Shown: positions 8,857 through 45,122 of the stretch, piece after piece
How positions within the stretch are numbered: position 1 is the stretch's first letter
Layout: the number at the start of each line of letters is the position of its first letter
From: an uncultured Gammaproteobacteria bacterium
GTDB taxonomy: Bacteria > Patescibacteriota > Microgenomatia > Levybacterales > UBA12049
Direction: 5' to 3'
Assembly: GCA_965230895.1 (NCBI GenBank)
Contig: OZ246394.1
Location: 778,627 to 831,954 of the forward strand
DNA: 53,328 bases
Notes under the pieces: model-generated
Databases searched by the model: none
What the model saw: the letters and a program-made list of their open reading frames with translations, nothing else
What the model was told of the DNA's origin: nothing
Position numbers and translations under genes: made by a program

Positions 8857-8876
8857 GTATATGTTCTCTATTAATA

Positions 8877-25453: not shown

Positions 25454-25530
25454 GGCCCCATCGTCTAGCGGCCTAGGACGTCAGGTTCTCATCCTGAAGA
25501 TCGCGGGTTCGATTCCCGCTGGGGTCACCA
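25454..25530 (+). tRNA. tRNA-Glu (anticodon CTC), CCA encoded
   Basis: Hand-folded. Acceptor GGCCCCA/TGGGGTC, D stem GTCT/GGAC, anticodon stem TCAGG/CCTGA with loop TTCTCAT, 5-nt variable loop, T stem GCGGG/CCCGC with loop TTCGATT, discriminator A plus CCA. Confidence 0.9.
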
Positions 25531-27044
25531 AACGCGACGCTTGTGTCATTAAGTGATCGAATATATTGATATAATGGGCTAATCGTGGTGTTCGAAATGC
25601 CTGGATAGCTCCATGACAGTTTTGAGGCAAATATCGAACTCAGCAAGATTTTTTGTAAAGTTAGGTTCGAATTCGTATATGTTTGCCCCAAGTTTTCGAA
25701 ATACTCTTTTATAAAAGATATAATATCTTCAAGATTATATTTTCTAAGTAGTACATCACTTTTAGCTACCTGTAACGCCGTTATTTTCTCTTCTAGAAAT
25801 TTATTTTGTTCTCTGAATATTTCGTCCGAATATATGCCACTGAGGTTTTTTTCAATCAAGGCTTGTCGTAATGCATAGAGCTTGGTAAGTTCTGTATCCG
25901 CTTCATCTTTTTTCTTCTGGAGTTGTGATAGCCTTTTTATATACGTTCGTCGTAACAGTGCTATAAAAAGCTTAAGACACTCTTCCGTAGGTGTTACTTC
26001 CTCCAATAGCTCTATTAGCTTTTTGTGAACATCTCCAACTGCAACAGAGGAAGCTCCGCATCTGTCTCTACAAAAATAGTAGGCATAACGACTTGTCTTC
26101 CCCTTTGACCATGCACCTGTAAAAACCATGCCGCATTTACCACAAGTCATAACTCTTCTTAAAGGAAAATCCGTATTGTCTTTATTTTTCTTGGCAAGAG
26201 GAGTTGCTATATTGGTATTCCTTCCGTCCAAGATGGCTTGTATTCGATAGAACTGTTGTTCTGTTACCATAGGAGGGTGTTGACCTCTAATCTCTTCAGG
26301 AGATTTTGTTGAAGTTAAAATTCCCATATAGAATTTATTTCTAAAAATTCTATTTACTGTTTGTTTAACAATCAGATTTTCTTTCCCTTTCAAGGTTATA
26401 CGAAGTCCTAAATCATTCATGATTTTTGCCATTTCAGCAAGAGTCTTGCTTCCTGTTGCCATTAATTCCCATGCTTGTTGCAATTTATCGAATGTTTGAG
26501 GGTCTTTTGTTACATAGCCATTTTGATTAAGGTAACCAAATGGTACAACTCCAGTGTGCAGTCCAGCAAGAAATCTTGCTCTCATACCGTTTTTTGTTCT
26601 TTCTGATCTAACATCATTATCAAGCTGTGCAAAACCTGCAAGCATTGTTTCAATAAGTTTTTCTGTTGGGCTATTTCCTGTAGGTTCGGTAGCTGAAAGT
26701 AAGGTAATTTCACATTCTGCTAATTTTTTTCTGATCGCTAAATAGTCAGCGGTTTGTCGCGAAATACGATCAAGTCTGTAAACAAAAACAGCACTGAAAG
26801 ACTGCTTATTTTTTCTACAATATTCAAGGAGTTTGATAAGAACAGGTCTGCCAAGAATAGTTTTTGCAGATCGACCTTCTTCTTTAAATACTTCTATTAT
26901 TTCAAACCCTCGTCGTAAAGCTTCTTTTCGACACAATTCCTCTTGTGTTCCAAGAGAGAAGTTATCTACCTGTTCTTCTGTGGAAACGCGTAAATATATT
27001 ATGGCTTTTTTGGGTTTTACATCATCTTTGTAGGCATTCATCAT
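25473..27044 (-). CDS. Large serine recombinase (integrase)
   Basis: AIIYLRVSTEEQ (catalytic Ser), VFVYRLDRISRQ, recombinase domain, zinc ribbon CGKCG..YYFCRDRC, long coiled coil. The last 19 codons plus the stop lie on the reverse complement of tRNA-Glu. Confidence 0.9.
   Translation of the reverse strand: MMNAYKDDVKPKKAIIYLRVSTEEQVDNFSLGTQEELCRKEALRRGFEIIEVFKEEGRSAKTILGRPVLIKLLEYCRKNKQSFSAVFVYRLDRISRQTADYLAIRKKLAECEITLLSATEPTGNSPTEKLIETMLAGFAQLDNDVRSERTKNGMRARFLAGLHTGVVPFGYLNQNGYVTKDPQTFDKLQQAWELMATGSKTLAEMAKIMNDLGLRITLKGKENLIVKQTVNRIFRNKFYMGILTSTKSPEEIRGQHPPMVTEQQFYRIQAILDGRNTNIATPLAKKNKDNTDFPLRRVMTCGKCGMVFTGAWSKGKTSRYAYYFCRDRCGASSVAVGDVHKKLIELLEEVTPTEECLKLFIALLRRTYIKRLSQLQKKKDEADTELTKLYALRQALIEKNLSGIYSDEIFREQNKFLEEKITALQVAKSDVLLRKYNLEDIISFIKEYFENLGQTYTNSNLTLQKILLSSIFASKLSWSYPGISNTTISPLYQYIRSLNDTSVAFGDPSGNRTRDLQDENLTS
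25521..25530 (+). repeat. Left copy of the 10-bp direct repeat GGGGTCACCA (candidate attL core, tRNA 3' end)
   Basis: Exact 10-mer also present at 52186-52195 in the same orientation. Confidence 0.5.
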
Positions 27045-27325
27045 TAGGTTGTTTTAAGTAATTCCTGTAACGTTTTTCCTTCAAATGTTTGCCTTTCAAA
27101 ATCATCAAGCCATGTGTCTGCAAGGTGTTCAAAGTCTGCAACAAGACACTCTAATTGTTCGTCTGTATATTGATTAGCAGTATCACCAAGAATTGTTCTT
27201 GCTTTGGCTGTCTTACTTTGTTGTTGAGGCTCAGAAATGAGGCTATTCAGTGCTTGAAATGATGTATTTGTTAAATCTAAAGTCTGCATACTATTACTAT
27301 CAATATATGGATAGTATATATCCAA
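27044..27325 (-). CDS. Small acidic hypothetical protein, translationally coupled to the recombinase (TAATG overlap)
   Basis: 93 aa; its stop overlaps the recombinase ATG by 1 nt. Confidence 0.5.
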   Translation of the reverse strand: MDIYYPYIDSNSMQTLDLTNTSFQALNSLISEPQQQSKTAKARTILGDTANQYTDEQLECLVADFEHLADTWLDDFERQTFEGKTLQELLKTT

Positions 27326-27399
27326 ATAGGGATAGTTGTCAAGAGGAAATTAGGCTTTTACCACGCAAAAGACATCGATAATAGCAAACACTATGAGGA

Positions 27400-28209
27400 T
27401 TAGTTATAGAAGACTATTTTGCCGCGCTGTACGGACTTTGTAGAGACTTTTTTATCTTCGGTACGTATTTCATAATAAGACTCTATTTTATTGTTTCTCA
27501 GGCTTTTGAAGGACGCCGCATACATTTTATTTTGCATAGGGTAAATTACGTTGATGAGGTCGTCAACAGATGAACTCATATTATTCACCATTATCGATGC
27601 CTTTTGCGTGGCAAAATCATATTCACCGACATACAAAGTATCTTTATCATAATAGATGGCTGTAATGACCTTTGATGATTTATAGACCTGCTCTTGAGAA
27701 AGCGTTTGGGTATTTATGACGAGTAGTTCATTGTCTTGTTTGTTTGTATCTGGGCGGGTAACACAGAAGATTTCTGTTGAAGATTTTATAAATGCTTGGT
27801 CACACAATATATTTAAATTCTTCTTATTATAATATGTTTCAAAACCTAGCTTATTATAAATTGAGTTTCCTTGGAAGTAGTCCAAAATAACTTCATTCAT
27901 GTCCTTTTCTTTCTTTTTGGTTTTCATATTGTATATCTCAGACTTCCAATCATTAGGATGTACGACAATGAGATAGGGATAATGAATTGATATACGATCC
28001 GGGTATAGAGACAATTGTTCTTTTAAAGAGAAAAAAGTTAATGTAGGTTGTGAAAAAACAACGATATTATCTACTGCTTTTTGTTGCTGTATTTTTGCAG
28101 GAATATATTTTAAATACATGACGATACCGTAGATAACGAAAAAAGCTATCACGATAAGCAATACTCCAATCTTTAACTTATTTCGTGTTTCAGTACTTAG
28201 ATCATTCAT
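27400..28209 (-). CDS. Bitopic membrane protein (T4SS-associated, VirB8/TcpC-position analog)
   Basis: Single N-terminal TM (IGVLLIVIAFFVIYGIVMYL) plus a ~220-aa outside domain. Function inferred from position only. Confidence 0.4.
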   Translation of the reverse strand: MNDLSTETRNKLKIGVLLIVIAFFVIYGIVMYLKYIPAKIQQQKAVDNIVVFSQPTLTFFSLKEQLSLYPDRISIHYPYLIVVHPNDWKSEIYNMKTKKKEKDMNEVILDYFQGNSIYNKLGFETYYNKKNLNILCDQAFIKSSTEIFCVTRPDTNKQDNELLVINTQTLSQEQVYKSSKVITAIYYDKDTLYVGEYDFATQKASIMVNNMSSSVDDLINVIYPMQNKMYAASFKSLRNNKIESYYEIRTEDKKVSTKSVQRGKIVFYN

Positions 28210-28684: not shown

Positions 28685-29440
28685 TTATTGTATATACCCT
28701 AACGGATTAACCGGTGTCCATACTCCATTATTATTGACTCGAATTTCATAATGTAAATGTTCACCAGTCGTAAATCCGGTATCACCCATCGTTCCAATTG
28801 GTTTGCCTGCCGTTAATGTCTCGCCACTGGTTACAAAGATTTTATTTAAATGCATATCTATTGTTTTAATCGAATTATCATTATTCAAAATCTCGACGGT
28901 ATGCGATCCATATTGGTCAACATAATAATTTACTTTTCCATTCATGGTTGCGTATACGGCAACATCACCAGTGGTCTTAAATGTTGCATTTGACTGATAA
29001 TACGCATCATCAGGTACAAAATCAACTCCTGTATGAACTCCACCAAAAAATGTATAGCTTGGATCCATAAACCCTGCTGTGATTTTAACAAATGTTAAAC
29101 CTGATCCACCTAAAGGATTTTGTATTGGAATATCTGTAGAGACAAAACTACCATCTGCAGGGAGTGAGATATTACTTGCGTTGGCATTTTTGGTAAAAGA
29201 TGGATTAGTGAATATACCAATAATCGCAATAAACAAAACTACAATGAGTACGACTCCGTTGAGTAAAATCGTCAAAACCATTCCTCGAAATTGCACCAGC
29301 AGTTCGGCAGCTAAAGGGAATGGGATAAAGATATAGGCAACAGCTCGAACTATCCAATCCAAAATCAACTCAAATGGATTATTTAGGAGAAGCTGTCCTT
29401 TATCCACTACGTTTTTTAGATTATAAATGTGCTTGACCAT
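28685..29440 (-). CDS. Membrane-anchored M23 peptidase (cell-wall hydrolase of the transfer apparatus)
   Basis: HTGVDF and GEHLHYEIR metal-ligand motifs, with N-terminal TM helices. Confidence 0.8.
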   Translation of the reverse strand: MVKHIYNLKNVVDKGQLLLNNPFELILDWIVRAVAYIFIPFPLAAELLVQFRGMVLTILLNGVVLIVVLFIAIIGIFTNPSFTKNANASNISLPADGSFVSTDIPIQNPLGGSGLTFVKITAGFMDPSYTFFGGVHTGVDFVPDDAYYQSNATFKTTGDVAVYATMNGKVNYYVDQYGSHTVEILNNDNSIKTIDMHLNKIFVTSGETLTAGKPIGTMGDTGFTTGEHLHYEIRVNNNGVWTPVNPLGYIQ

Positions 29441-29441
29441 C

Positions 29442-31607
29442 CTAGTTACTCTTCTTCATTTCAATCAGACTATCCTCATGGGGAAGAGACAAAATATCAA
29501 CACGCATATGTTCATTTTGTCGATAGAGAACAATCTCTCCAATCTCAAGTTCTCCCAATTGTCTTTTCTCCTCATCAGTCATTGGAAATATATTTTCCAT
29601 CAGCGGTATTGTTGCATAAGATTGTTTCAGAAGAATTTTTGTTTCCGAATTGGTAATAATTGCTTTGCCTAAATCATTATCAAGAAAGTCCTGAATGTCT
29701 TGCGTTATGGAGACAACTCCCATGTTTCGTTTTCTTGCTTGTTTGACAAGCTTTCTATAAAAGACTGCAACATCCGTATCAACCAGCAAATTGTGTGCCT
29801 CATCAATAAATAACATTTTCTTTCGTTTTGATCGTTGATTAGACAAACTCCAAATGAGTGAGGTAAGTAAATACATTGCTGGTGCTTTTTCTTCAGTTTC
29901 GCCAAGAGGAGAAAGATTGAAAACAATAAGATCATTATCTAAATGAATTTCTCGCTCTGCATTAAAAACACCTTGTAGACTTCCTTTGTCTAAAATCATT
30001 AAATCTGCATGCATCGGTGTTCCCTTTAACTCTTTTAAGAACATTGAGAATGTTGGTTTAACCTTTGGATACTTCTCGTAAAGCTTTACTAAGACATTAT
30101 CGAGAACCGCACCGTCATATCGTTCAGTACGAATAAAGAATTTGAAAAAGGTTTTGAGAACCCCAATGTGATCGAGAATATCATTTGGATCATCGGAGGC
30201 AATCGAAAAAGGATTAATGCCATTATCCCGTGAGAAATCGACAACTTCTCCACCCATTTCTTTTGCAAAGTGTATGTATTCTCCTTCAGGATCAATGATG
30301 ATGATTTGTGTATTTCGCATATAGAGTCGTGTAGCAAGTAGTTTTGCTGTCACCGATTTTCCCATACCGGATTGTCCGAAGATGTTAATGTTGCTATTAT
30401 TAATATTTCGTTCATCAATAGTGAAAGGATTTACAAACACTAAACTGTTATGGTATCGATTCACACCAAGAAAAATTCCTTTTGGATCGTGAATTTGTTT
30501 GGCGACGAATGGTGTGAGATAGGCAACTGCCGATGATTGTAATATCCTATTTTGATTCAGACGATCTTCATTAAATGGTAGCGTAGTTTCAAATGCCTTT
30601 TTCTGTCCATAGATATATTTAGTTAAGGTAAGTTCAAGTCCATCAGTAAAATTCTTTAACTCTTTGTGCAGTTGTTTTAATTCATTTTTATCTTGCGCTT
30701 GAATGGAGAGGTAGAACGAATAGATAAATCCTTTTTCATACTCATGCACAAGTTCATAAATAAATTGGCTTATCTCCTCAATACTTTTCTCGACCTGTTG
30801 ATCTTTGAGTTTTCCTTTCTGCTGCCGTTCTGATTGCTTGAGTTCTAGGACAGATAACCGCTCTTTTGCTTTTTTGATCAGCTCCTGGCTATTTGAAGGC
30901 TCAATAAACATACTGATCGTGAATGGTAAGTGAGATGTTGCAAGTTTGAAGAGAACATCATCAGTTAAAAACGCTGGTACATCGGTTAAATAATAGGTTG
31001 CAATTAACTTCTCATCCAAGGTAATATGCGTACTTTTCGCTTTTGTATTTTCTGGTTTGTACAATCGTGCGCCATTAGCATCCAGCCGAATACCATCTTG
31101 GATTTTGCCAAGGGTGATATTCATTTCTGATCCTTTTGCTTTCGTCAGTGCGTCTTTGTATTCTTGTTTTTCGTAACGATATAATCGTATATTTCTCATT
31201 AATGTCTTGGGAGAAATAGACCATAAGAGTTTAGGCTCTGTAAGTCCAATAATGGGATTATTAATGGCTTTGTCTACGATTTGCTCGCGATACTGTTCGA
31301 GTAACCCTTCCAAACGCTGAATTTCCTGTTTATATATTTTGAGTACTTTCTTCTCTGTTGTCGCAAGTGGATGGTTCTCTAATTTTTTCAATTCCTCAAG
31401 TCCACCATAAATTTCCTGATTATGAGAAGCGAGTGTTTGGATCTTTTGTAATGTTTTGTTTTCATATCCAATTTTTTCTTGCAATGCTTCTAACTTTTGA
31501 GCTGCAATTTTATTCTTGCTCTGCAGATCTGCATAGAGATGTACACCAAGATCAAATTGCAGTTTCTTCTTTTTCAATTTGGTAAGTAATGAATCTTTCT
31601 TTCTCAT
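29442..31607 (-). CDS. VirB4/TrbE-like T4SS ATPase with N-terminal coiled-coil extension
   Basis: Walker A GQSGMGKSV and Walker B MLFIDEAHNLL. About 190 N-terminal residues are heptad-like and K/E/L-rich. Confidence 0.85.
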   Translation of the reverse strand: MRKKDSLLTKLKKKKLQFDLGVHLYADLQSKNKIAAQKLEALQEKIGYENKTLQKIQTLASHNQEIYGGLEELKKLENHPLATTEKKVLKIYKQEIQRLEGLLEQYREQIVDKAINNPIIGLTEPKLLWSISPKTLMRNIRLYRYEKQEYKDALTKAKGSEMNITLGKIQDGIRLDANGARLYKPENTKAKSTHITLDEKLIATYYLTDVPAFLTDDVLFKLATSHLPFTISMFIEPSNSQELIKKAKERLSVLELKQSERQQKGKLKDQQVEKSIEEISQFIYELVHEYEKGFIYSFYLSIQAQDKNELKQLHKELKNFTDGLELTLTKYIYGQKKAFETTLPFNEDRLNQNRILQSSAVAYLTPFVAKQIHDPKGIFLGVNRYHNSLVFVNPFTIDERNINNSNINIFGQSGMGKSVTAKLLATRLYMRNTQIIIIDPEGEYIHFAKEMGGEVVDFSRDNGINPFSIASDDPNDILDHIGVLKTFFKFFIRTERYDGAVLDNVLVKLYEKYPKVKPTFSMFLKELKGTPMHADLMILDKGSLQGVFNAEREIHLDNDLIVFNLSPLGETEEKAPAMYLLTSLIWSLSNQRSKRKKMLFIDEAHNLLVDTDVAVFYRKLVKQARKRNMGVVSITQDIQDFLDNDLGKAIITNSETKILLKQSYATIPLMENIFPMTDEEKRQLGELEIGEIVLYRQNEHMRVDILSLPHEDSLIEMKKSN

Positions 31608-32422
31608 AGTGTATTTCGAAATTGACTTTGAAAATAAGTGATAAGCTGCTTTTCTGTTAATTGCATTGTTTGAATTCGTTCGAGTGCCAAGCTACTTGTA
31701 AACCGTCGTTGTGTATCATCCAGTTTCTGTGCTGCTTCCAGAAAATGTTTATCATCAGTTCCAAGAAGTGGTACTGAGAACACAGCATAGTATTTCATCA
31801 GTTGAAAAGTATTTTGCTCAACAAGCGCAGAAAGCTCTTTAATATAATTCTCAACTAATCCATTAACCTTCTCATTTGCAGTTTCGTAAAGTGAATAATA
31901 ATGTTCGTGATAGTCTTCAACAGTTGCTGTTTCTTTTCGTGAAATGAGCTGCACTTTCATTGGAAGTGTATGAAGCATCGTTTTTATATGATGATAATAT
32001 CGCTCCCGTTCTTCATCATTGAGAAGAGCGATATCAAATGGGCGTATTTCATAAACGGCAATAAGTTTTTTCTTACGAATTATATAATTACCTACCACCT
32101 TAAAATCTCCCGTTGTTTTCTCAAGCTCTCTCATTGTGAATTGCTTCTTTGCAAAGCTATATGATACTGCTCGAGGTATAATTTTATATAACGGTTGATG
32201 ATCAATCTTCAGTGTTGCCACGAGTGCATAAAAAAGTTCTACAAGAAAAATTGTTGCGATAATAAGACCCACTTGATCAACTCTGAGAACAACTTTATAC
32301 ATGAGTAGTGTGAGGAGTGCTAATGCTATACCTCCGATCAAAAAGACCACGGTATCGGTAAAGAACATTGTTCTAAAAATATGTTCTCGTAGATTATCTT
32401 TATAGACGCGTATTGTTCTCAT
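31604..32422 (-). CDS. VirB3-like membrane hairpin protein with cytoplasmic domain
   Basis: Two TM helices, then a domain resembling the VirB4 N-terminal region (IAVYEIRPFDIALLNDEERERYYHHIKTMLHTL). Lies directly upstream of VirB4 with a 4-nt overlap. Confidence 0.5.
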   Translation of the reverse strand: MRTIRVYKDNLREHIFRTMFFTDTVVFLIGGIALALLTLLMYKVVLRVDQVGLIIATIFLVELFYALVATLKIDHQPLYKIIPRAVSYSFAKKQFTMRELEKTTGDFKVVGNYIIRKKKLIAVYEIRPFDIALLNDEERERYYHHIKTMLHTLPMKVQLISRKETATVEDYHEHYYSLYETANEKVNGLVENYIKELSALVEQNTFQLMKYYAVFSVPLLGTDDKHFLEAAQKLDDTQRRFTSSLALERIQTMQLTEKQLITYFQSQFRNTL

Positions 32423-33957
32423 TTTTTAGTATTTCCTTTCTTCTCCTGTTGTATAGAGTGTTTAAATGGCTGTCTTACTCTTGGTTGCTCAGAACTAGGT
32501 TCATTCTTCATAGTGGGCTGGTTAGGAAAGTGAGAATTGTAACTGCCCCGTTTTATTGTTGAGAAATGTGTACGTGATTGTTTCGACTCTTTATCAGCTT
32601 TTGCAGATTGTATATTTGTACCCTGTGATTGTGGAGTAGCAGTTTCAGTCTGATTTTTTGTTGGTCTTTTCTGCATTGATTCTTTTCTCTCCTGCGTCGT
32701 GTTTTTTGTATAAGTTCGTGATGATTCAGTATGGGTGTTGTTTGTCGATTGTTTATTGGTATTTGCAGAGCGATACCCAGAATCTTTATATTCAGTCCCT
32801 GATGCATTTGGCATGTTTCTATCAGCAGTAGGCTTAGTACTTGGTTTTAAAAGTCCAATCTTGCGACCAATATATGTCCCAGCATAACTCCTTGCTCCAA
32901 CAGCGTGTCCTGTTATCGCACCACGTTTTATTTCTCGAACACTACCAGTTAATGCGCCGCTTCCCATCATACTTTGCGCATTGGCACTCATCATCGACCA
33001 CCCGTCACCGAAAATACGGCCGATAAAGATGTTAACCCCTCCTAGAAAAATCAGTGATCCCGAGAAAAGGAAAAGTGTTCCCATTGATCCACCATGTGAG
33101 GTAATAATACTGCCGAGGAGTGAGGAAACAATAGCAAAGCCTAAGACAAAAGCAGGTTGTTGAATGAGGAATGTAAACCATGTTTTAAAATATGTATTGG
33201 TAATATTTTCTGTTTTCTCGGAAAGTGCAAAGGGGAGCACAAGTGGAAAGATAACACTTAAGAAGAGGAGGGAGATAAAGCGAATCATTGCTTGGAAGAC
33301 AATGTAGAGAAAACCGATGAGAAAGAAGCCAATGGCAATAATGAGGACAATCATTTGAATAAGCGTATTGCCATTAACAATAAGCGTTGGGAATTGAGAT
33401 GACATTCCAGTTAGTCTTCGAAACTCCTCCGTATTGACATAAGCTTGAACAAAGGTTGCTATGTTATAAGCATTTTGCGCGATAATTTTTTCATTAAGGA
33501 GATTAATAAACTGAATGCTATATGAAAGAATAGAAGGGGTTACAATGAAAAGGACAACAACAAATACTAATCGTTTGAAGAAGTTTTTTAACTGCATCGT
33601 ATTATCGTGTGTAATATGTGAGAGCGCAGTATAGGAGACGATCAGCACAAAGATTGGAATTGCGATATCAGAAAAGATTGTTCGAAATTGACTGAGTCCT
33701 GATAATGCTGTTCCGTCTTTAAGAGTGATTGTATCTCCAAGTAATTCAGGTGTGTTAAAAATTAGTCCACTTGAAACCCAATCAAACCCAGAAAAGAAAC
33801 TGTTGAGTACACCACTTCCTGATGCCTGCGGTTCATTTGTAACATTTTGCTGGATAGATAACGTTGGAGAAAGTGCTTGAGCGTTAACTGGTTTTACCCC
33901 AAGAAGAAATACGATGAGAAGCAAAAAAATGCTAGACAATACTTTCATGGATAACAA
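32419..33957 (-). CDS. VirB6-like polytopic channel protein with long disordered C-terminal tail
   Basis: Signal peptide (..VKPVNAQA), about 6 TM helices, and ~150 aa of T/S/N/K/Q-rich low-complexity tail. Confidence 0.55.
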   Translation of the reverse strand: MLSMKVLSSIFLLLIVFLLGVKPVNAQALSPTLSIQQNVTNEPQASGSGVLNSFFSGFDWVSSGLIFNTPELLGDTITLKDGTALSGLSQFRTIFSDIAIPIFVLIVSYTALSHITHDNTMQLKNFFKRLVFVVVLFIVTPSILSYSIQFINLLNEKIIAQNAYNIATFVQAYVNTEEFRRLTGMSSQFPTLIVNGNTLIQMIVLIIAIGFFLIGFLYIVFQAMIRFISLLFLSVIFPLVLPFALSEKTENITNTYFKTWFTFLIQQPAFVLGFAIVSSLLGSIITSHGGSMGTLFLFSGSLIFLGGVNIFIGRIFGDGWSMMSANAQSMMGSGALTGSVREIKRGAITGHAVGARSYAGTYIGRKIGLLKPSTKPTADRNMPNASGTEYKDSGYRSANTNKQSTNNTHTESSRTYTKNTTQERKESMQKRPTKNQTETATPQSQGTNIQSAKADKESKQSRTHFSTIKRGSYNSHFPNQPTMKNEPSSEQPRVRQPFKHSIQQEKKGNTKK

Positions 33958-35510: not shown

Positions 35511-36560
35511 TTATATTACATTTATTGTTCCACGAAACATTCCCATACTGCACATAAAAGCAAGCTCTCCTGGTTCTGTTGGAGCTGTAAAGGTAATTTT
35601 ATCTGATGAACCAATTGGAACAACTTTTTGGATATTCATTGAAGGAAGTGTAAATGATTGTGTACATCCTCCTCCACCTGTATTTTTAAGATTTAACGTA
35701 ACTTGAGAGCCTGCTTTAACCGTTATGTTATCTGGATTGTACCCGGACTCTTCAATGGTAATTGTAGCTTCGTTAACTGGTCGAGCTTTTGCATTACTTT
35801 GGGTGGCAGCGCTTGCTACGGAGGATGAAACTTCACAATAACTAATCGCACAGAAGAAGTTCTTGCTGATATTCTCAAGTGTTATCTTACTTCCTGTAAG
35901 TGCCAGAACATTATTGAGATTAAAGACAGCAAGAAGGATAAGTGCAAATGCCGCAAGTTTGGTAAATTTTTGCTGCATACTTTCTCCAAGCCGAGTTGCT
36001 AAGTAGCCAAATACGAAGAATAGTGGAGATGTTCCAAGTACAAATGCAAAGAGAATAGCTGCACCTGAAAGAGGGTTACCTGATGCAATTGCAAGCGCCA
36101 TCATTGCCTGTGTAGTGCCGCATGGGATAAATACAGTAAAGGCACCAACAATTGCTGGAGCTAATATACTATTACTTTTCGACTCTTTTCTAACTAATCG
36201 TGTCAAGAAACGGGGAGGTTGGATAATAAAATAACGGAATATTGGATGTACATTAAGTAAATTAAACGCTGTACCTAACATGAAAATGCCAACTGCAAAT
36301 TGTAGTACAATATTTGCAGTAAGAGATAATTGGAATAGAGAGCCAAACCATCCAAGTAAAAATCCAAGAATAGTATAAGCTGCAAGTTTAGCCGCTAAGA
36401 AAGAAAGTATAGGAAGTGCGTTCCCAGAACGCTTAGTATCTTCTTTTAGTTTTTGTTCATGACGTTGAGCTATTGTGGCAGCCAATAAGCCACCTTGTAC
36501 TGCAAGGCAGGTTAACGCGCCTGCAAATAATCCTGTTAAAAAAATAGTAATTAAGTTCAT
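35511..36560 (-). CDS. DsbD_2/TauE-like permease fused to a C-terminal cupredoxin-like domain
   Basis: TCLAVQGG and FIPCGTTQ membrane Cys motifs. C-terminal ITVKAGSQVTLNLKN..LAFMCSMGMFRGTINVI. Confidence 0.6.
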   Translation of the reverse strand: MNLITIFLTGLFAGALTCLAVQGGLLAATIAQRHEQKLKEDTKRSGNALPILSFLAAKLAAYTILGFLLGWFGSLFQLSLTANIVLQFAVGIFMLGTAFNLLNVHPIFRYFIIQPPRFLTRLVRKESKSNSILAPAIVGAFTVFIPCGTTQAMMALAIASGNPLSGAAILFAFVLGTSPLFFVFGYLATRLGESMQQKFTKLAAFALILLAVFNLNNVLALTGSKITLENISKNFFCAISYCEVSSSVASAATQSNAKARPVNEATITIEESGYNPDNITVKAGSQVTLNLKNTGGGGCTQSFTLPSMNIQKVVPIGSSDKITFTAPTEPGELAFMCSMGMFRGTINVI

Positions 36561-36562
36561 AG

Positions 36563-36991
36563 TTATTCTATAATTATTTTACCCGTCATCCCTAGTGCCT
36601 TATGATTTTTAACTGAACAGTAATATTCAAATGTGCCTATTTTGCTTGCTGCAAATTCAACTGTTTGTGTATCTTTTTCTTCAAGCAATTGAGTCGCCAC
36701 ATTTAATTCATCAATTCTAAAATCATGTAGACCTTCAATATTATGGAATATTATCTTTATTGTTTCTCCTTTTTTGACACGCATTAGACCGGGCTGAAAC
36801 ATATAGTTTGATCCAATAACATCAAACTCGCGCACATTGCCCATGAGTGTGCCAGTTACTGAACTCTGCTGAGTATTTTGTAACATATCCTCTTTGTTGT
36901 CCCAGCCAAATAAATCACTAAGTGGCTTATACATTGACAAAGCTAGGAAAAAAATAAGTATTCCTATGGTTATTTTCTTCCAAGTTGGCAT
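36563..36991 (-). CDS. Membrane-anchored type-1 cupredoxin (plastocyanin/amicyanin-like)
   Basis: EGLHDF ... YYCSVKNHKALGM (H, C-x4-H-x4-M ligand pattern). Confidence 0.75.
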   Translation of the reverse strand: MPTWKKITIGILIFFLALSMYKPLSDLFGWDNKEDMLQNTQQSSVTGTLMGNVREFDVIGSNYMFQPGLMRVKKGETIKIIFHNIEGLHDFRIDELNVATQLLEEKDTQTVEFAASKIGTFEYYCSVKNHKALGMTGKIIIE

Positions 36992-37058
36992 AATTTAAGT
37001 CTACGACTAATTGTAGTAGATCATTGTAAATATATCAACTTCTTTAATTACCATATTA

Positions 37059-37655
37059 TTATTGATCGAGCTGAGCATATACAACTAATCGTTCAGCATA
37101 AGTATTAGATTTGTCATTCCAAGTTCCCTGACAGGTAATAAGGTTAAGCATAGGTTTTTCAGAATCTCCAAACACTTCCTTTAAAGGAAAGTTATCATAA
37201 GGATATTTAGCTAGCTTAATCACTGAAAAAGTTTGTTTTTCCCCTTTATCATCAATTACTGTGATTTTATCTCCTTTTTGAAGTTTGTTTAAGTCCCAGA
37301 AGACAGCGGGAGAGCCATCCTTTTTATCATAATGACCTGCAAGCACTGCGTTTCCAGTCTGCCCTGGTAGAAACCCTGGTTTGTACCAGGCTGTGTTATC
37401 TGCGTCTTTTGGTACATCCATTCTACCTTCCTTGTCGTTTCCAACTTCTTCAATATTGGTGTCTACATTGATACTTGGTATTTGAACTTTTTGAGGTATA
37501 CTTGGCTGAGATTTCTTAATAGAATTAGCAGTTTGTTCTTTATTTATTTGGGCAGAAAGTACTAATTGTTTATCGGAATTTGAGAGATAAGCTCCAGCCC
37601 CTATTCCTACAGATATACCTATAATAATGATTAATGTTATTAATTTATTTTTCAT
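37059..37655 (-). CDS. Sortase-family transpeptidase (class E/F-like)
   Basis: N-terminal TM, LAGHYD, LNLITCQG (TLxTC), ERLVVYA (Arg). Confidence 0.8.
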   Translation of the reverse strand: MKNKLITLIIIIGISVGIGAGAYLSNSDKQLVLSAQINKEQTANSIKKSQPSIPQKVQIPSINVDTNIEEVGNDKEGRMDVPKDADNTAWYKPGFLPGQTGNAVLAGHYDKKDGSPAVFWDLNKLQKGDKITVIDDKGEKQTFSVIKLAKYPYDNFPLKEVFGDSEKPMLNLITCQGTWNDKSNTYAERLVVYAQLDQ

Positions 37656-37667
37656 AAATATTTTTTA

Positions 37668-37708
37668 GAACATGATGCGTTAATAATTTATTTTAACGCA
37701 TCATGTTC
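37668..37708 (-). promoter_or_regulatory. Perfect 16-bp stem hairpin between the small peptide gene and the sortase
   Basis: GAACATGATGCGTTAA (37668-83), 9-nt loop, TTAACGCATCATGTTC (37693-708). No U-tract on the transcribed strand. Confidence 0.6.
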
Positions 37709-37729
37709 CTTAGCTCTTATTAAACCAAT

Positions 37730-37900
37730 TTATTCAGCTCTACCCGTTGCTGGTGCTGAACTTGGCATCGCAGCACTGGTTGTTGGTGTTACTGTTGTCG
37801 TATTATTTGTCGTGTTTGCTGTTTGTGCAAATGTCATTGTTGCCGCTGCCATTGCTGAAATTGCAAATACTCCTGTTGCTATTGTTACTTTTTTAAACAT
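37730..37900 (-). CDS. Small secreted Thr-rich peptide (56 aa)
   Basis: Strong SD GAAAGGAGGTGATAAT before ATG 37900. Signal-like MFKKVTIATGVFAISAMAAATMTFA. Mature part QTANTTNNTTTVTPTTSAAMPSSAPATGRAE. Confidence 0.5.
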   Translation of the reverse strand: MFKKVTIATGVFAISAMAAATMTFAQTANTTNNTTTVTPTTSAAMPSSAPATGRAE

Positions 37901-37961
37901 ATTATCACCTCCTTTCAAATATTTCGTATTAATTAATTTCGACTACTGATGCATGCATTGA

Positions 37962-38816
37962 CTATTTAAGCTGTTGATCTATAACCGTTTTGAATGAACT
38001 CAACGGTTGTGCACCGATAAGTGGCGTACCGATAATTGTACCGTTAGAAGAGGACTTACCGATAAAAAATGATGGGGTTCCAGATGCGCCAACACTTCCT
38101 GCATTCGCTATATCTTTATCTACTTCAGCTTTATATTTACCTCCATCAAGGCAAGCTTGCAGATCATTACCATTGAGTCCTAAGTCATCAGCTATAATTG
38201 GAAGTTGATCAAGCGCAAGTCCCGTTCCATTAGATGTGGTTCGCTTAAATATCTCGTCATGATATTTGAAATATATTTCGTCTCCGCCTTGTTCTCTAGC
38301 ACATTCTGCTGCCTCAGCTTCCTTAGGTGCATTTTGATGGAAAGAAAGGGGCAGATCACGATACACAAGTTTTACTTTCCCTGTATCGATATATTCCTTT
38401 TTTAGCTGTGATAATGTATCGTCGTAAAATTGTTTGCAAAATGGGCACTCATAATCAGAAAATTCAATAATTGTTACTTTTGCATTTTTATCTCCCAAAA
38501 TAGGATCATCATCGATTGATACTTTTTTAGGGCTTAAATCTTCAGTAGGAACAGCTTGTGGTGCTTGAGCATTGTTTGCTGCTTGAACAGTAGAAGGACT
38601 AGTTGTGTTTGCTTTTTGAGCACCCTCTAAGTACAGTACTTTATTTGTTAACATTCCTAGCATAAATGCAAAAATAATTAATACGATAGTAAGAAAGCCA
38701 TTGGTGGTACGAAGAAAAGCAAATTTTGGAATTGCTATATTTACATAACCTGAAGATTTTTCTTTTTCTACCTGGGTTAATTCTTGATTTTTTACTAGAG
38801 AAGAATTTTTTGGCAT
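37962..38816 (-). CDS. Membrane-anchored DsbA-family thiol:disulfide oxidoreductase
   Basis: FSDYECPFCKQFY (CxxC) thioredoxin fold, with an N-terminal TM. Confidence 0.8.
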   Translation of the reverse strand: MPKNSSLVKNQELTQVEKEKSSGYVNIAIPKFAFLRTTNGFLTIVLIIFAFMLGMLTNKVLYLEGAQKANTTSPSTVQAANNAQAPQAVPTEDLSPKKVSIDDDPILGDKNAKVTIIEFSDYECPFCKQFYDDTLSQLKKEYIDTGKVKLVYRDLPLSFHQNAPKEAEAAECAREQGGDEIYFKYHDEIFKRTTSNGTGLALDQLPIIADDLGLNGNDLQACLDGGKYKAEVDKDIANAGSVGASGTPSFFIGKSSSNGTIIGTPLIGAQPLSSFKTVIDQQLK

Positions 38817-38828
38817 AACGAGTTTATC

Positions 38829-38866
38829 TACTACACAGTGTAGTAATAGATGATGGCCTATGTCAA
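38829..38866 (-). promoter_or_regulatory. Candidate promoter with a 17-bp perfect palindromic operator (BlaI/CopY-type TACA..TGTA box)
   Basis: Minus strand: TTGACA (38866-61), 18 nt, TACACT (38842-37). Palindrome TACTACAC-A-GTGTAGTA (38829-38845) covers the -10. Confidence 0.55.
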
Positions 38867-38884
38867 GTGTAAGTTTACTACGGG

Positions 38885-39898
38885 TTAATGCTTAACAGGA
38901 GAATACATATGCGAAGCCTTTTGTATTGGTTGCTCTTTACTGCTTGATGTTGAAGGAAGTGCATTTAAATTTTGCTCGCTTTTACATGAGTTCATGCATG
39001 CTCCATCTGTGCAGAGCATAACGACATCATGGTCTACATGATGGACTTCTTCTGCGTATATAGGACTTACCATAACAACTCCAACAAGGAATGTCGAGAA
39101 AAGGGTAATAAGCAAATGCTTTACTCTAAATAGCCTACGTCCATAATCCTTATCTAGTAAGAAATATATTCTTGGTTCAAGTGTGTCATAATCCGCAATT
39201 GATGCAAGTGCGACATTCTTCATAGATGGAAATGCAAGAAGTTTTTTCAGTGCTGAGACGAGAGGATATTGAGAACCTACTTTGTTGATTGCAAATGTAT
39301 CAGCTTTTATTTCCCTATCTATACGATATTTTTTAATAAAATCTCCGAGTAATGGAAAAAATGGGAGAAGCGAATACGCTACCGAAGCGATTATCATAGT
39401 AAAGGTATCATGATTTTCGAGATGGTACTGCTCGTGTCGTAATACAGCTTCGAGTTCTTTTTGATTAAGTTTTGCCACTATACCTGTCGATATATAAATC
39501 TTTGGACTTTTTATTCCAAGGCAATAAGCAAAGGGCTTATCAGATTTAATAATAATTGTCTCTTGCTCTAATCCCAAATGTGTTAATAGCGTAAACAAAT
39601 TTTTATGAACAATTTTTTTATCATGTAATTTTCGTCGCAGTATAATTACTTTAATACTTAAAACAATAAATTTTAGAAATGAGACAGCGACGAGTAAAAA
39701 AAGTATAACAAGAGGTGTAATGCTTAAAAAATAGGGGATAGGTTCTATGTATGTTGTAATAAATGATTGACAATAATAGACTGCATGATTAAGCAATGGA
39801 GTAAGCTTTTGAGCAATGATAAATAACAGACTGCTTGCTGTCAAAACTAATCCAGAAAAAAAAACAAGATTTTTATTTACGTTTATCATACTCATCAA
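38885..39898 (-). CDS. BlaR1/MecR1-family M56 membrane metalloprotease without a penicillin-binding sensor domain
   Basis: RHEQYHLENHD (HExxH) in a polytopic protein. Tail after the last TM: EEVHHVDHDVVMLCTDGACMNSCKSE. Overlaps the BlaI-like gene. Confidence 0.8.
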   Translation of the reverse strand: MMSMINVNKNLVFFSGLVLTASSLLFIIAQKLTPLLNHAVYYCQSFITTYIEPIPYFLSITPLVILFLLVAVSFLKFIVLSIKVIILRRKLHDKKIVHKNLFTLLTHLGLEQETIIIKSDKPFAYCLGIKSPKIYISTGIVAKLNQKELEAVLRHEQYHLENHDTFTMIIASVAYSLLPFFPLLGDFIKKYRIDREIKADTFAINKVGSQYPLVSALKKLLAFPSMKNVALASIADYDTLEPRIYFLLDKDYGRRLFRVKHLLITLFSTFLVGVVMVSPIYAEEVHHVDHDVVMLCTDGACMNSCKSEQNLNALPSTSSSKEQPIQKASHMYSPVKH

Positions 39899-40259
39899 GC
39901 ATGTCCAAAAAATATTGTCGTTTTTTTTCTGGTAAATTGTCTACACTCTCTGCAAAAGAAGCGATAGCTGTATCGCCATATGAATTTATAAATTTTCTTA
40001 AAAATGATTGGGCGATACTCTTACTATATTTTTCCTTCGTAATTTTTGGTGAATATAGATATCCGTTCTTATCTTCTTTTCGGTCTAGCAAACCTTTATC
40101 AAATAGCCGTTGTAGTATAGTTGCTACTGTTGTATAAGCAAGCTTTTTGTCTTTTTCAAGTACTTTAAGAACATCTCTCCCTGAACAACTTTTATTTTCC
40201 CAAAGTATATCCATGATCTTTTGTTCTAATTCTCCCAAGGTAGTTGATTTCATGTCCAT
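39873..40259 (-). CDS. BlaI/MecI/CopY-family winged-helix repressor
   Basis: LGELEQKIMDILWE..AYTTVATILQRLFDKGLLDR. No C-terminal CxCxxxxCxC copper motif. Confidence 0.85.
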   Translation of the reverse strand: MDMKSTTLGELEQKIMDILWENKSCSGRDVLKVLEKDKKLAYTTVATILQRLFDKGLLDRKEDKNGYLYSPKITKEKYSKSIAQSFLRKFINSYGDTAIASFAESVDNLPEKKRQYFLDMLDEYDKRK

Positions 40260-40309
40260 ATAATACCAGACATGCTATAAGATTTACAATCATGACAGAA
40301 AATTATTGG

Positions 40310-41299
40310 TCATTTCAAGTATTTGTTAAATACTTCTTTAGTTCTTTCAGCAATTAGATCCCAACCTAAGTTTCTAAAGTTGTGATCCTGTCCTTCGTAT
40401 TCAAAGTATTCAACTTGTTTACCTTCTTTTTTGAGTGCCGTATTAAGTTCCCGTGACCACTCAGGGTTTACTTCTGTATCCTCAAGTCCTTGGTGGATGC
40501 TTATTGGTGCAGTAAGATATGTGAGGTAATTAATAGGAGAAACACTCTTTAAGCTTGGATTAATTGAGACAGAACCTTTGTTAGTTCTTCCATAGAATCC
40601 TAAATTATCTGCTGCATCAGCACTTGTAGGTGCCCACAGAACAATTGCTTTAACTTTATCTGTTACTTCAGCAGTTCTTAAAGATACCTCTCCTCCCATA
40701 CTATGTCCCCACATGCCAATTCTATTTGTATCCGCTTGTGGAATGTTTTTTATTGAAGCAATAAGATTCAAAACATCAATAGCATATTCTGGACGATGTC
40801 CACCTCTATTGCCTGAATCGTTCTCTGAATTACCATGCCCTCTGTAATCTGAGGCAAGAGTAATATAGCCTTCTGGTACTAGTATATCTGCAATATTTCG
40901 AGTGCCATCACCGCTTTTAAATTCAGTTGGAGAATAATAACCATGATTAAGAACTATAATTGGAAACGGTCCTTCTCCTTGTGGGATATTCATCACTCCA
41001 TAGATTTTTAAATTATCGGAGGGATAGGAGATTAAATAACTAGTATAAGGATCCGATTGAGCAAGCGTTTTTTCAATTTTGATATCTCCACCTGTAAAGT
41101 TTCTCTTGCGTAAATCTTCAATAAAATTTGGAGAACTTCCGATTGTATTTTCAAGTGAATGATCTGTCTCCAGTGCATTATCTTGTGATTTACTATCTGG
41201 TTGTTTAGGGTTAGCAATTTTAAAACCTTGCCATAATACAAATACTCCCAAACATAAAAGTACAAGTAATGCGATAGTTGACGTTTTTTTTAATTTCAT
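40310..41299 (-). CDS. Secreted alpha/beta hydrolase (S9/dienelactone-hydrolase-like)
   Basis: GMWGHSMGG nucleophile elbow. Start chosen at MKLKKTST (41299). Confidence 0.7.
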   Translation of the reverse strand: MKLKKTSTIALLVLLCLGVFVLWQGFKIANPKQPDSKSQDNALETDHSLENTIGSSPNFIEDLRKRNFTGGDIKIEKTLAQSDPYTSYLISYPSDNLKIYGVMNIPQGEGPFPIIVLNHGYYSPTEFKSGDGTRNIADILVPEGYITLASDYRGHGNSENDSGNRGGHRPEYAIDVLNLIASIKNIPQADTNRIGMWGHSMGGEVSLRTAEVTDKVKAIVLWAPTSADAADNLGFYGRTNKGSVSINPSLKSVSPINYLTYLTAPISIHQGLEDTEVNPEWSRELNTALKKEGKQVEYFEYEGQDHNFRNLGWDLIAERTKEVFNKYLK

Positions 41300-41316
41300 A
41301 GTGGATTTAATAGTTG

Positions 41317-42021
41317 TTAATGCGTAGACCAAGAAATTATTTCGTTTAGGTTTTCATTTTTCTTTATTTTACTGATTACTTTATTAGTATTGGTTGCTAT
41401 TACATAGATATCACTATCTTTTGAGTTTCTTGTATATAGTTTTGTTGCATCTTTCGATAGTGCTACTTCATGAGGTAGGCTTTCAGGTTGTAACTGTATC
41501 ATTTGTTCAACTTTATAATTTGAAGTATTTATTTTATAGATAGCATTCCCTGTCTCAGCTGCTATATAAGCAGACTTATTATCTGGCGTAAAGACAAGAT
41601 CACCCAGATGTATGTTATTTCCCATTTGTATCCTTTCTTTAACAGTATTTGTACTGAGATCAATTACTAGTACTTGGTCGCTTGTCATCATCAGATGCAG
41701 GTGTTCTTTGGCATTTCTATGAAATGCGCTTAGCTGATCCTGAGAAGCACTTGCTGTTACCCAAACATATTGTTTACTTGGTGCCATTTGAATATCATGA
41801 GGGGAAAGTTCTACCGTAATGTTTTCCTCCTTAGAAGAAAGACTAATTGAAGTAATTTCTTTATTTGTCTTTGCATCCTCAATAATAACTTGGTTTCCCA
41901 CAGCCTTAAAAACAAGTTCTTCCGAGTTTGACTTTAACCTATCGGAAAATATAAATGAGATTGCACCAATTGCAATAATGACTACAAGAATAATTCCAAT
42001 TAATATTTTTTTCTTATGCAT
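41317..42021 (-). CDS. Membrane-anchored YVTN-type beta-propeller repeat protein
   Basis: N-terminal TM. Repeated ..YVWVTASAS.., ..AYIAAETGNAIYKINTSNYKV.., ..LYTRNSKDSDIYVIATNTNKV. Confidence 0.55.
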   Translation of the reverse strand: MHKKKILIGIILVVIIAIGAISFIFSDRLKSNSEELVFKAVGNQVIIEDAKTNKEITSISLSSKEENITVELSPHDIQMAPSKQYVWVTASASQDQLSAFHRNAKEHLHLMMTSDQVLVIDLSTNTVKERIQMGNNIHLGDLVFTPDNKSAYIAAETGNAIYKINTSNYKVEQMIQLQPESLPHEVALSKDATKLYTRNSKDSDIYVIATNTNKVISKIKKNENLNEIISWSTH

Positions 42022-42039
42022 AGGGTTTGATGTTCCTAA

Positions 42040-44265
42040 TTAAATTTTCACTCGCTTTAGAAGTAGCGAATTTGTAACTACAGATATTGAACTACTTGCC
42101 ATAGCTACAGAGGCAAAAATAGGATTAAGGAGAGGTCCTCCAAATGGAAAGAGAACCCCCATAGCAACGGGAATGAGCACGATATTATACCCAAATGCCC
42201 AGAACAGATTCAGTTTTATTGTTCGCATTGTCTTTTTAGACAGTTCAAACGCTGCTGCTACACTTCGCAAATCTTTATTAATAAGTGTTATATCAGCAGC
42301 TTCAATGGCAATATCAGTTCCTGTTCCCATAGCTATACCCACATCAGCAGCCGCAATTGCAGGAGCATCATTAATTCCATCACCAACCATTGCTACTTGT
42401 TTGCCTTCTGCTTGTAATTTTCGTACTTCTGCTTCTTTCTGATCAGGTAAGACTTCAGCGAGTATTCGTTTAATTCCAAGTTGCGAAGCGATAGCCTTTG
42501 CTGCTCTTTCGTTATCACCAGTGATCATAATAACTTCTATGCCTCGTTTTACAAGCCGAGCAACGCCCTCTTTGGCTGTATCCTTAATCGTATCTGCAAC
42601 GGCAATCAGCCCAAGGAGCTTTCCCTCAGATGCAAGAAGCATAACTGTTTTGCCTTCATTCTCAAGTTTCTCAATGTCATACTGAACTTGTTTCAGGATC
42701 TCTATTTTCTCTCTATCCATTAATCGCTTATTGCCAAAGAATACTTTTCTCTTTCCGATAGTTCCTTCAACCCCATGTCCAGCAATACCATTAAACTTTG
42801 TTACAGGGAAGACTTTTACTTTCTGAGTTTCAGCATATTTTACAATTGCTTCAGCTAGTGAATGCTCTGAGCCTTTTTCGATAGATGCAGCAAGTTCTAA
42901 TACATCATCCTTTTTAGCTTTATTGAGTGGAATAATATCCGTTACTTCAGGTTTACCTTTGGTAAGCGTGCCAGTTTTATCAAACACAATTGCAGTTATC
43001 TTATTAGCAATTTCCAAACTGGATGCTTCTTTGAAAAGTATCCCATGTTCCGCACCTTTTCCAGTACCCACCATAATCGCTGTTGGAGTAGCCAATCCCA
43101 TTGCACAAGGACATGCAATGATAAGAACTGCTACTGTATTAAGTAGAGCAAAAAGAAATGCAGGGTTTGGACCAAATATATACCAGATACCAAATGTTAA
43201 AAAGGCAAGCATAATAACTATTGGGACAAAGTAGGATGAGACAACATCTGCAAGCTTTTGGATTGGTGCTTTACTGCCTTGTGCTTCTTCGACGAGCTTT
43301 ATAATTTGAGCAAGCATAGTATCTGAACCTACTTTAGTCGCTTTATAGGTAAAGGATCCGGTTTTGTTGATCGTTGCCCCAATGACCGTGTCTCCTTTTG
43401 CAATATCGACAGGTATACTTTCTCCTGTAACAACCGATTGATCGATACTTGATTCACCATCAATGACCGTTCCATCAACTGGGATTTTCTCACCTGGTCT
43501 TACTCGAAGAACATCACCAATTTGTACCTCTTCAAATGGAATATCCACTTCTTTGCCCTCTCGTATTACTCGGGCTGTTTTTGCTTGCAGTCCAATGAGT
43601 TTTTTAATCGCCTGAGAAGTTCCTGATTTCGCTTGGGCTTCAAAATACCTCCCTAAGAGAATAAGTCCAATGACGATCACAGAAACATCGAAATAGGGCA
43701 TATGTTCTATACCTAAGTTCATGACCACTTCAGGGAAAAATGTAACAAATACTGAATATGCAAAAGCCACTGTTGTTCCAAGTGCCACCAATGTATCCAT
43801 GTTTGCTGTGCGATGTTTTAAAGCAGGTATTGTTGCCTTATAAAATTCTAGTCCTGCCCAAAATTGAATTGGTATAGCAAGCAATAATTGTGTGAAAGGA
43901 TTTTGCAAGATTGCTGGTGCTGTATTCATCAAACCGGGAAAACTTCCCCAAAGTAAAAACGCTCCAGAGGTCAGACTAGCAATAACCTTTACTTTGAGAT
44001 TGGCCAGCTCTTTTTTCTTTTCTTCTTCTCTCAGTTCTTCATTTTTTTCTTTGAGATCTAATGTATATCCTGTTTGAGAAACTGATTCAGCAAGCTGCTC
44101 TGGAGTGCAGTTATTTTCATCATAGGTGACAGTTGCTTTTGTTGTTGCTAAATTCACTACAGCATCTGTAACCCCAGGTGTTTTCTTCAACGCCCGTTCT
44201 GTAACTCTAACACATGAAGCACAATGCATGCCTTTAATTGGAAATGATTTTTTAACTTCACTCAT
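42040..44265 (-). CDS. copA: Cu(I)-translocating P1B-type ATPase
   Basis: HMA GMHCASC, CPC in the TM region, [15 protein letters not shown]. Confidence 0.95.
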
Positions 44266-44267
44266 AT

Positions 44268-44627: not shown

Positions 44628-44680
44628 AATTTGTGTTACCTCCTTGGAAGAAGCGCAGATTTGCACCTCTTCTAAAAAGA

Positions 44681-45103: not shown

Positions 45104-45122
45104 ATATTCACCTCCTTTACTT

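Follow-up and report, generated by a model that had tools for sequence, protein, structure and literature searches.

We analyzed a 53,328-nt stretch of contig OZ246394.1 (assembly GCA_965230895.1; hereafter the window), deposited as an uncultured Gammaproteobacteria bacterium and placed by GTDB in the Patescibacteriota, in which the large serine recombinase (LSR) gene int overlaps tRNA-Glu(CTC) on the opposite strand at one end of a 26.7-kb element (Table 1). This tRNA gene is the only one that ARAGORN finds in the window. The open reading frame (ORF) of int encodes 523 aa and stops 58 nt within the tRNA (overlap, 25473-25530); its C-terminal end reads ...VAFGDPSGNRTRDLQDENLTS and its last residues are ...FGDPSGNRTRDLQDENLTS, each up to the stop codon. 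Both the 58-nt overlap of ORF 25473-27044 with the tRNA at 25454-25530 and the reverse-complement origin of the tail had been noted in a sequence-only reading of the window; ARAGORN, Rfam, and the ORF call confirm the first, and the final 18 residues are indeed antisense tRNA, read from the CCA end to the D-loop. Residues 1 to 508 are element encoded, and residues 509 to 523 are antisense host tRNA.

An integrase gene that runs into a tRNA

Pfam places a Resolvase domain at residues 14-161 (E 1.5e-31) and a Recombinase domain (PF07508) at residues 194-275 (E 4e-10) of the 523-aa ORF, along with a Zn_ribbon_recom match (PF13408) at residues 294-328 whose 23.9 bits fall slightly below the cut-off of 25.3. 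In an alignment of 34 homologs, R19, V20, and S21, the R-x-S motif of the resolvase-type catalytic domain, are invariant, as are the zinc-ribbon cysteines C301, C304, C325, and C329. An AlphaFold2 (AF2) model contains helices 354-401 and 407-428, which correspond to the coiled-coil insertion of the zinc ribbon. The solved serine integrases (A118, SPbeta SprA, TP901-1) are distant relatives (E 1e-5 to 1e-13, partial coverage), and phage LSRs and those of integrative conjugative elements (ICEs), such as A118/LI, SPbeta SprA, phiC31, Bxb1, and TP901-1, show the same order of resolvase, recombinase, and zinc ribbon with coiled coil. In its sequence and in the geometry of its site (see below), the enzyme fits a large serine integrase. 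The sequence-only reading had proposed an alignment of homologs as a check on where the conserved protein ends; in that alignment the folded, conserved part of the integrase ends at about residue 497, with the last helix at 490-496, and the AF2 fold agrees, giving residues 502-523 of the integrated form a pLDDT (AF2's per-residue confidence) below 50.

A homolog search returned 956 matches; the 120 listed are 59 to 87% identical, and the few of these with a source name or taxon are Patescibacteria. From species-representative genomes we extracted 80 genomic loci; nearly all derive from Patescibacteria metagenome-assembled genomes, some with evidently wrong taxon labels. Together with the window they make a set of 81 loci. 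In 71 of the 81, a tRNA on the opposite strand begins 38 to 41 nt past the same conserved codon, and these tRNAs span 10 isotypes and 25 anticodons; six of the 10 loci without an in-register tRNA are truncated by contig ends. At the protein level, an R-T dipeptide, the antisense translation of the tRNA T-loop, occurs at a fixed distance beyond the last conserved helix in 91 of 119 homologs, and 24 more stop earlier. Because of this shared register and this dipeptide, we conclude from the sequences that the overlap is not a chance event.

The position at which the ORF stops is variable: the earliest stop lies 20 nt into the tRNA and the latest well past its 5′ end, with the entire tRNA read through in 26 of the 71 loci. 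Since fold and conservation end near residue 497 and the stops vary across 10 isotypes, the tRNA-encoded tail of the integrated form (residues 509 to 523) is arbitrary and no conserved part of the protein. The earlier suggestion that the protein may tolerate an arbitrary tail therefore holds for the tRNA-encoded residues, with their low pLDDT and variable stops. The integrated int genes themselves are intact in 80 of 80 species-level loci, full length, 55 to 87% identical, and free of decay.

Position and geometry of the integration site

All-against-all comparison of the loci yielded four pairs of related elements at different tRNAs: L006 and L010 (96.7% nucleotide identity; tRNA-Ser with anticodon CGA versus GGA), L007 and L008 (87%; Asp versus Ser), L019 and L024 (86%; Gly versus Phe), and L033 and L036 (80%; Arg versus Leu). 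In all four, similarity carries on past the end of int and is lost among the first bases of the tRNA 3′ end, beyond which the universal T-loop is the sole match. The body of the tRNA is thus host DNA, with the junction at the discriminator-CCA. Contigs of attP type, in which int is followed by other element DNA and no tRNA (L081, which encodes protein P0013, and L022, both with the P arm directly after int; the left end of the L051 element; and L063), part from the tRNA sequence right after its first 6 to 9 bases. The CCA is encoded by 50 of the 71 occupied tRNAs (70%) versus 37 of 86 unoccupied tRNAs in the same loci (43%), an excess that is consistent with a crossover in the CCA or with a CCA supplied by the element. 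In the classical tyrosine-integrase case, the element brings a replacement tRNA 3′ half, whereas here only the 10-bp block at the CCA end is common to both element ends; a search of the window allowing up to 3 mismatches found no second copy of the tRNA 3′ half.

We located attR in eight loci and the window from the tRNA-end bases combined with TCGAAC at the attP offset. In the window, GTTCGA stands ahead of the right repeat copy at the distance predicted, and the DNA beyond that copy is unrelated. Distances were counted from tRNA C74, which is 25528 in attL and 52193 in attR. The 3′ part of tRNA-Glu, from T-arm to CCA, forms the B arm of attL, and its T-loop TCGA is centred 17.5 bp from the site centre, as an attB-type arm; the TCGA of the P arm (52169-52172) is centred 22.5 bp from it, and the TTAA of the P′ arm (25549-25552; TTGA in most relatives) lies 22.5 bp away on the opposite side. 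The same spacings recur across the family: TTGA occupies positions -22 to -19 of the P′ arm in 59 to 84% of 71 loci, the T-loop TCGAAC lies at +16 to +21 from TGG in 57 of 71 tRNA arms, and TCGAAC or a one-mismatch variant lies exactly at +21 to +26 after TGG in every attP-type arm found (nine attR sites, L081, L022, and the L063 junction). When the P′ sequence was used as a query for the P arm in an inverted-repeat search, no match was obtained; the arms have only the outer motif in common.

Serine integrases characteristically have attP and attB half-sites that are offset by 5 bp in register, as known from the A118 and phiC31 structures and mentioned in the phiC31 paper. Judged by its motifs, the site in the window has this canonical LSR geometry, with the outer motif 5 bp nearer the centre in the attB-type arm. 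The symmetry centre coincides with the first C's of the CCA, so that integration leaves the tRNA intact. We infer a crossover at about 25528-25529, in the CCA end of the tRNA, with a predicted attB of ...CGATTCCCGCTGGGGTCACCA / GGAGTTCTAATTTCTACATG and a predicted attP (int strand) of ...ACACAAGCGTCGCGTT / TGGTGACCCC / GATGAGTTTTATTTCGAACTC. The motif for the zinc-ribbon domain in the attB half-site is probably the tRNA T-loop (GTTCGA), which would explain how integrases that are 80 to 97% identical at the nucleotide level come to occupy different tRNAs. T-loop and acceptor end would together form the recognized half-site, and the downstream half-site would matter little, because it carries no motif and because integrations occur beside remnants of earlier elements. 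Taken together, these comparisons make it very probable that the overlap is the attL of a 26.7-kb integrative, putatively conjugative element that the LSR placed at the 3′ end (discriminator-CCA) of a host tRNA-Glu.

Several results count against this placement. On the host side, the B′ arm has no recognizable motif, and none occurs downstream of the 86 unoccupied tRNAs either. The assembled contigs of eight public runs contain occupied junctions only, with no empty attB and no excised circle, although this absence weighs little, as assemblies drop rare variants; contig breaks inside the tRNA in these runs belong to tRNA-Glu genes of other organisms. An exact scan of JGI (Joint Genome Institute) metagenome contigs for the P arm gave 0 matches. 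The crossover is placed by comparison and symmetry, which define it to within the 10-bp identity block and not to an exact cut. The protein encoded in the host flank has no homologs besides itself, and relatives hence offer no empty site.

The phage and ICE LSRs likewise use a quasi-palindromic attP of about 50 bp and an attB of about 40 bp, with the outer motif 5 bp nearer the centre in the attB-type arm; they exchange strands at a central dinucleotide by way of a phosphoserine intermediate. Unlike the family described here, which targets the CCA end of many tRNA genes and probably takes the T-loop as the outer motif of its target half-site, they target one protein-coding gene; they also differ in that attP here lies inside the int ORF and integration alters the C-terminus of the protein. 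The use of tRNA genes as targets by serine recombinases is rare in the literature, the examples being phiRSM1 (tRNA-Ser) and a group of Mycobacterium actinomycete ICEs (AICEs; tRNA-Leu) (PMC3218068). Each of these uses one specific tRNA, compared with 10 isotypes here, and the phiRSM1 enzyme is a small resolvase-like recombinase. To our knowledge, neither an overlap of ORF and att site nor T-loop-based recognition has been described for them. In calling tRNA targets uncommon among serine integrases, the sequence-only reading agrees with the literature (PMC3218068), but this Patescibacteria family uses them routinely. A full-text literature search found neither this architecture in serine integrases nor the Patescibacteria family described, which is absence of evidence and not proof.

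Some loci carry further tRNA pieces next to the site. Degenerate or half tRNAs lie 3′ of int in L002 (11490-11560) and L062 (11505-11580), where an acceptor end and T-arm at attB-type spacing adjoin otherwise unrecognizable sequence; they are possibly decayed targets or pseudo-sites. Orphan copies of the first 16 to 22 nt of the occupied tRNA occur beyond its 5′ end in L030 (11583-11706, as two tandem 62-nt units), L021 (11565-11656), and L070 (11579-11641), and likewise in L006, L020, and L041, each after a copy of a promoter-like spacer. The CCA-end model leaves these copies unexplained, as the LSR works on the opposite side of the tRNA. They prompted us to consider that the element might bring an entire tRNA, with the crossover in the D-loop, a model that we rejected because the window has no such fragment and relatives differ in the tRNA body.

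Other loci show more than one insertion. In L063 (5060-9458), a 4.2-kb element sits between the family integrase and tRNA-Pro. The serine integrase that it encodes (7605-9458) is a different one, of 617 aa; its tail, GDRTRT..., is antisense tRNA too, and its excised-form tail has a similar LELFIIL helix. From these sequences, the architecture is common to at least two LSR lineages, and the elements stack in tandem. At the far end of integrated elements, short remnants of int 3′ ends (about 20 codons) are fused to a P arm (e.g., L051:1335-1400) and are called as ORFs of 60 to 100 aa in several genomes (P0128, P0129, P0130, P0132, and P0134); they look like leftovers of earlier elements later used as landing sites.

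Two predicted C-termini from one gene

The element/host junction falls inside the int ORF, with the crossover 15 to 18 codons ahead of the stop and attP within the last ~13 codons. Because the crossover precedes the ORF stop, the integrated and excised forms differ in their C-termini. Joining the element ends by reconstruction gives a protein of 530 aa that is the same as the integrated form through P508; from residue 509 to the stop, the excised form reads DEFYFELFLEWVTNLMEKYNQN and the integrated form SGNRTRDLQDENLTS. The sequence-only reading had offered, as its second possibility, that the integrated state encodes a modified enzyme, and in structural terms this is supported (523 versus a predicted 530 aa, different from residue 509). 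In attR, in-frame stops precede the detached int piece, which would therefore be expressed only when joined to int in the circular form. The 13-codon linker ahead of the crossover is free of stop codons in every locus.

Reconstructed tails of eight other loci align without gaps to that of the window and share the motif [FLI]-E-x-x-L-x-W-[ILV]-x-x-[LI]-x-x-[AV]-[YF] with acidic residues after it, and a terminal YYTxKxN is common to some; a profile search and proteins P0008 and P0013 bring the total to 18 independent examples. In the AF2 model of P0008, which has the attP form, residues 512-526 make a helix on flexible linkers. By this reconstruction, integration detaches a conserved C-terminal helix segment and leaves the catalytic, recombinase, zinc-ribbon, and coiled-coil parts in place. 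Five different codons are used for the invariant Leu of the tail, four for the conserved Ala, and up to seven for the hydrophobic positions; the peptide motif reaches 30 to 45 nt past the usual ±26-bp span of attP; and in P0013, a 21-nt insertion parts the DNA motif, still at +21 to +26, from the peptide motif, which persists. Codon turnover, reach beyond attP, and the P0013 case argue for selection on the tail peptide.

Just upstream of int, a small ORF (81 to 93 aa) ends in a stop codon that in the window shares one base with the int start codon, and a homolog ends just ahead of int in 79 of 80 loci. It has no Pfam or PHROG match and is a candidate directionality factor or accessory protein. 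The sequences show an LSR-borne, putatively conjugative element inserted at the CCA end of tRNA-Glu; the int ORF there runs into host DNA, as antisense tRNA, until a chance stop (15 residues here, a widely differing number in relatives), and in the circle it would run into the other end of the element, which encodes the conserved amphipathic helix motif. Loss of the helix could alter the activity or stability of the integrase or its response to the small upstream-encoded protein, in which case the state of the DNA itself would decide which form of the enzyme is made. The circular element would yield a full-length enzyme with the helix, tuned for integration, and integration would strip the helix to leave either an excision-tuned enzyme (e.g., with an exposed site for the co-translated small protein) or a restrained one. 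If the small ORF encodes a directionality factor, the factor and int would be expressed together, and the state-dependent C-terminus could set the direction of the reaction. The acidic extreme C-terminus of phiC31 integrase contacts the phiC31 directionality factor (phiC31 paper), and by this likeness an interaction between the tail helix and a directionality factor is conceivable.

A real functional switch between the two integrase forms is possible, though we would not call it probable. We are similarly tentative about the wider proposal, which we put short of an even chance, that gene topology sets integrase directionality or activity in a family that also recognizes the universal tRNA T-loop and CCA end. 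Directionality of serine integrases is at present explained by a separate directionality factor; a C-terminus rewritten by the enzyme's own reaction would, if true, be a second, self-contained layer of control. Recognition of T-loop and CCA, if true, would make this a natural serine integrase with a target in every cell and genome, which is interesting for engineering organisms without installed landing pads.

What speaks against a switch is largely what speaks for neutral read-through, in which attP overlaps the end of int for compactness, both tails are dispensable, and the two forms behave alike. The fold and strong conservation stop near residue 497; the integrated tails differ greatly in length and sequence; and the helix of the excised tail, on its flexible linkers, is modelled at low confidence (pLDDT ~50). 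The attP-type junction of L022 encodes a short tail only, from which the full motif is absent, and the first motif codons (TTC GAA CAC) coincide with the DNA motif, explaining part of the conservation of the tail. Intact integrated int in all 80 loci further indicates that the helix is not essential for long-term survival in the integrated state. Against neutrality stand the recurrence of the peptide motif in 18 independent sequences, with synonymous turnover at Leu and Ala and a reach of 30 to 45 nt past the attP span; its retention in P0013 although displaced from the DNA motif; and a 13-codon linker that is stop-free in every locus. We regard neutral read-through as possible too, at slightly lower odds than a switch.

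Less plausible still is a self-disabling integrase, inactivated by integration so that excision needs enzyme from other copies or never occurs. The precedent is the SSV-type "suicidal" tyrosine integrases of archaea, which have their recombination site in the ORF and whose insertion at a tRNA gene rearranges the integrase gene (PMC7253208); attP is likewise inside the ORF here, and a conserved segment is lost. SSV integrases, which belong to another enzyme family and another domain of life, end up as two non-functional parts, whereas here just the last ~22 residues are swapped and all recognized LSR domains stay intact. Full-length integrated int that is 55 to 87% identical over 80 species-level genomes argues for continued use, and tandem arrays and remnants indicate repeated cycles of integration. 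Self-disabling is therefore improbable. A 1999 study by Magrini et al. is said to place the target of the Myxococcus phage Mx8 in a tRNA gene, and Mx8 integration reportedly exchanges more than 100 residues of the integrase, compared with ~22 in the family here. The attP of Mx8 lies in the coding sequence of its tyrosine integrase (IntP/IntX), and on integration the gene acquires a new 3′ end and its protein is altered (PMC6070905). The Mx8 enzyme is a tyrosine integrase with a measured change in activity, and ours is a serine enzyme whose two forms are deduced from sequence; as the enzyme families differ, the likeness to Mx8 and SSV, an att site inside an ORF, is one of architecture only.

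Classical integration that restores the tRNA, with a crossover in the anticodon or T-loop and an element carrying the tRNA 3′ half, would also predict a fixed distance from the end of the protein to the tRNA 3′ end, as the tRNA 3′ part would travel with the element. It is very improbable: elements that are 96.7% identical differ abruptly in the neighbouring acceptor and T-stem bases, the other end of the element holds the 10-bp repeat and no displaced tRNA 3′ fragment, and the attP-type contigs leave the tRNA sequence after its first 6 to 9 bases. That int is a resident chromosomal recombinase gene overlapping the tRNA by happenstance, with no mobile-element junction, is scarcely credible, even though no excised form or empty site was directly seen in the public contigs searched, since direct repeats bound a 26.7-kb block of conjugation and cargo genes and the flanks of related integrases, which adjoin 10 tRNA isotypes, are unrelated on the tRNA side only.

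The element and its genes

All genes of element type fall between the two repeats, with int adjoining attL (Table 1).

Table 1. Coordinates of features in the window, numbered from its first nucleotide
Feature	Position	Strand	Basis or remark
tRNA-Glu(CTC), intact host gene	25454-25530	+	ARAGORN; Rfam tRNA 61.3 bits, gathering score 29
LSR gene (int), integrated form, 523 aa	25473-27044	-	Pfam domains, alignment, AF2
Left 10-bp direct repeat GGGGTCACCA, attL identity block	25521-25530		Repeat and symmetry
P′ arm of attL, within int coding sequence (codons ~497-505)	25531-25556		Family P′ profile
Element body, 26,665 bp	25531-52195		Direct repeats and Pfam scans
Small ORF, 81-93 aa, candidate directionality factor or accessory protein	27044-27325	-	
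M23 peptidase	28685-29440		Pfam
VirB4-like protein	29442-31607		Pfam
VirB6/TrbL	32419-33957		Pfam
Copper-resistance cargo: DsbD, cupredoxins	~35511-46198		Pfam
CopA-type ATPase	42040-44265		Pfam
CsoR	45914-46198		Pfam
Coupling protein	47120-49606		Pfam
Replic_Relax protein (PF13814)	49645-50478		Pfam, E 5e-11
DUF2958 protein	51021-51461		Pfam
Helix-turn-helix regulator	51880-52110		Pfam
Detached int 3′ piece, encoding DEFYFELFLEWVTNLMEKYNQN and stop (residues 509-530)	52117-52185	-	Reconstruction
P arm of attR	52146-52185		TCGA at 52169-52172
Right 10-bp direct repeat GGGGTCACCA	52186-52195		Host DNA from 52196 on

Beside the VirB4-like protein, VirB6/TrbL, M23 hydrolase, and coupling protein, the element has a weak match to a TrbC-like pilin, and its sole relaxase candidate is the PF13814 Replic_Relax protein (E 5e-11), for which nicking is only putative. 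Of the 80 loci, 63 have homologs of the coupling and Replic_Relax proteins upstream of int, and none has them on the tRNA side. A survey of type IV secretion in Patescibacteria, dated 2025, found most clusters to be without a relaxase, suggested a non-conjugative role, and did not mention an integrase (PMC12102498). The VirB4, VirB6, pilin-like, and M23 genes of those MPF-FATA-like clusters are also present here (PMC12102498); in contrast to the survey, the cluster in the window lies inside an att-bounded element together with a coupling protein, a Replic_Relax protein, and an integrase. The PF13814 protein may thus be the "missing" relaxase of Patescibacteria conjugation clusters (PMC12102498). 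A type IV secretion cluster within a bounded element, combined with int-linked coupling and Replic_Relax genes in 63 of 80 genomes, suggests a widespread, overlooked Patescibacteria family of conjugative or mobilizable elements.

The cargo (35511-46198) is a copper/redox block that comprises DsbD-cupredoxin, plastocyanin-like proteins, a sortase, and a DsbA-like thioredoxin, along with a BlaR1/BlaI-like sensor-repressor pair, an alpha/beta hydrolase, the CopA-type P-type ATPase, DUF305, and CsoR. A 47-nt inverted repeat (27351-27397 and 27575-27621; 81% complementary, 177-nt spacer), a possible regulatory site, lies just upstream of the small ORF and int. On the host side of attR, a 260-aa ORF (52491-53273) consists of two internal repeats of ~120 aa; its DNA repeats are ~75 to 79% identical and reach the end of the window, and a variant copy of the repeat is present on contigs of three runs.

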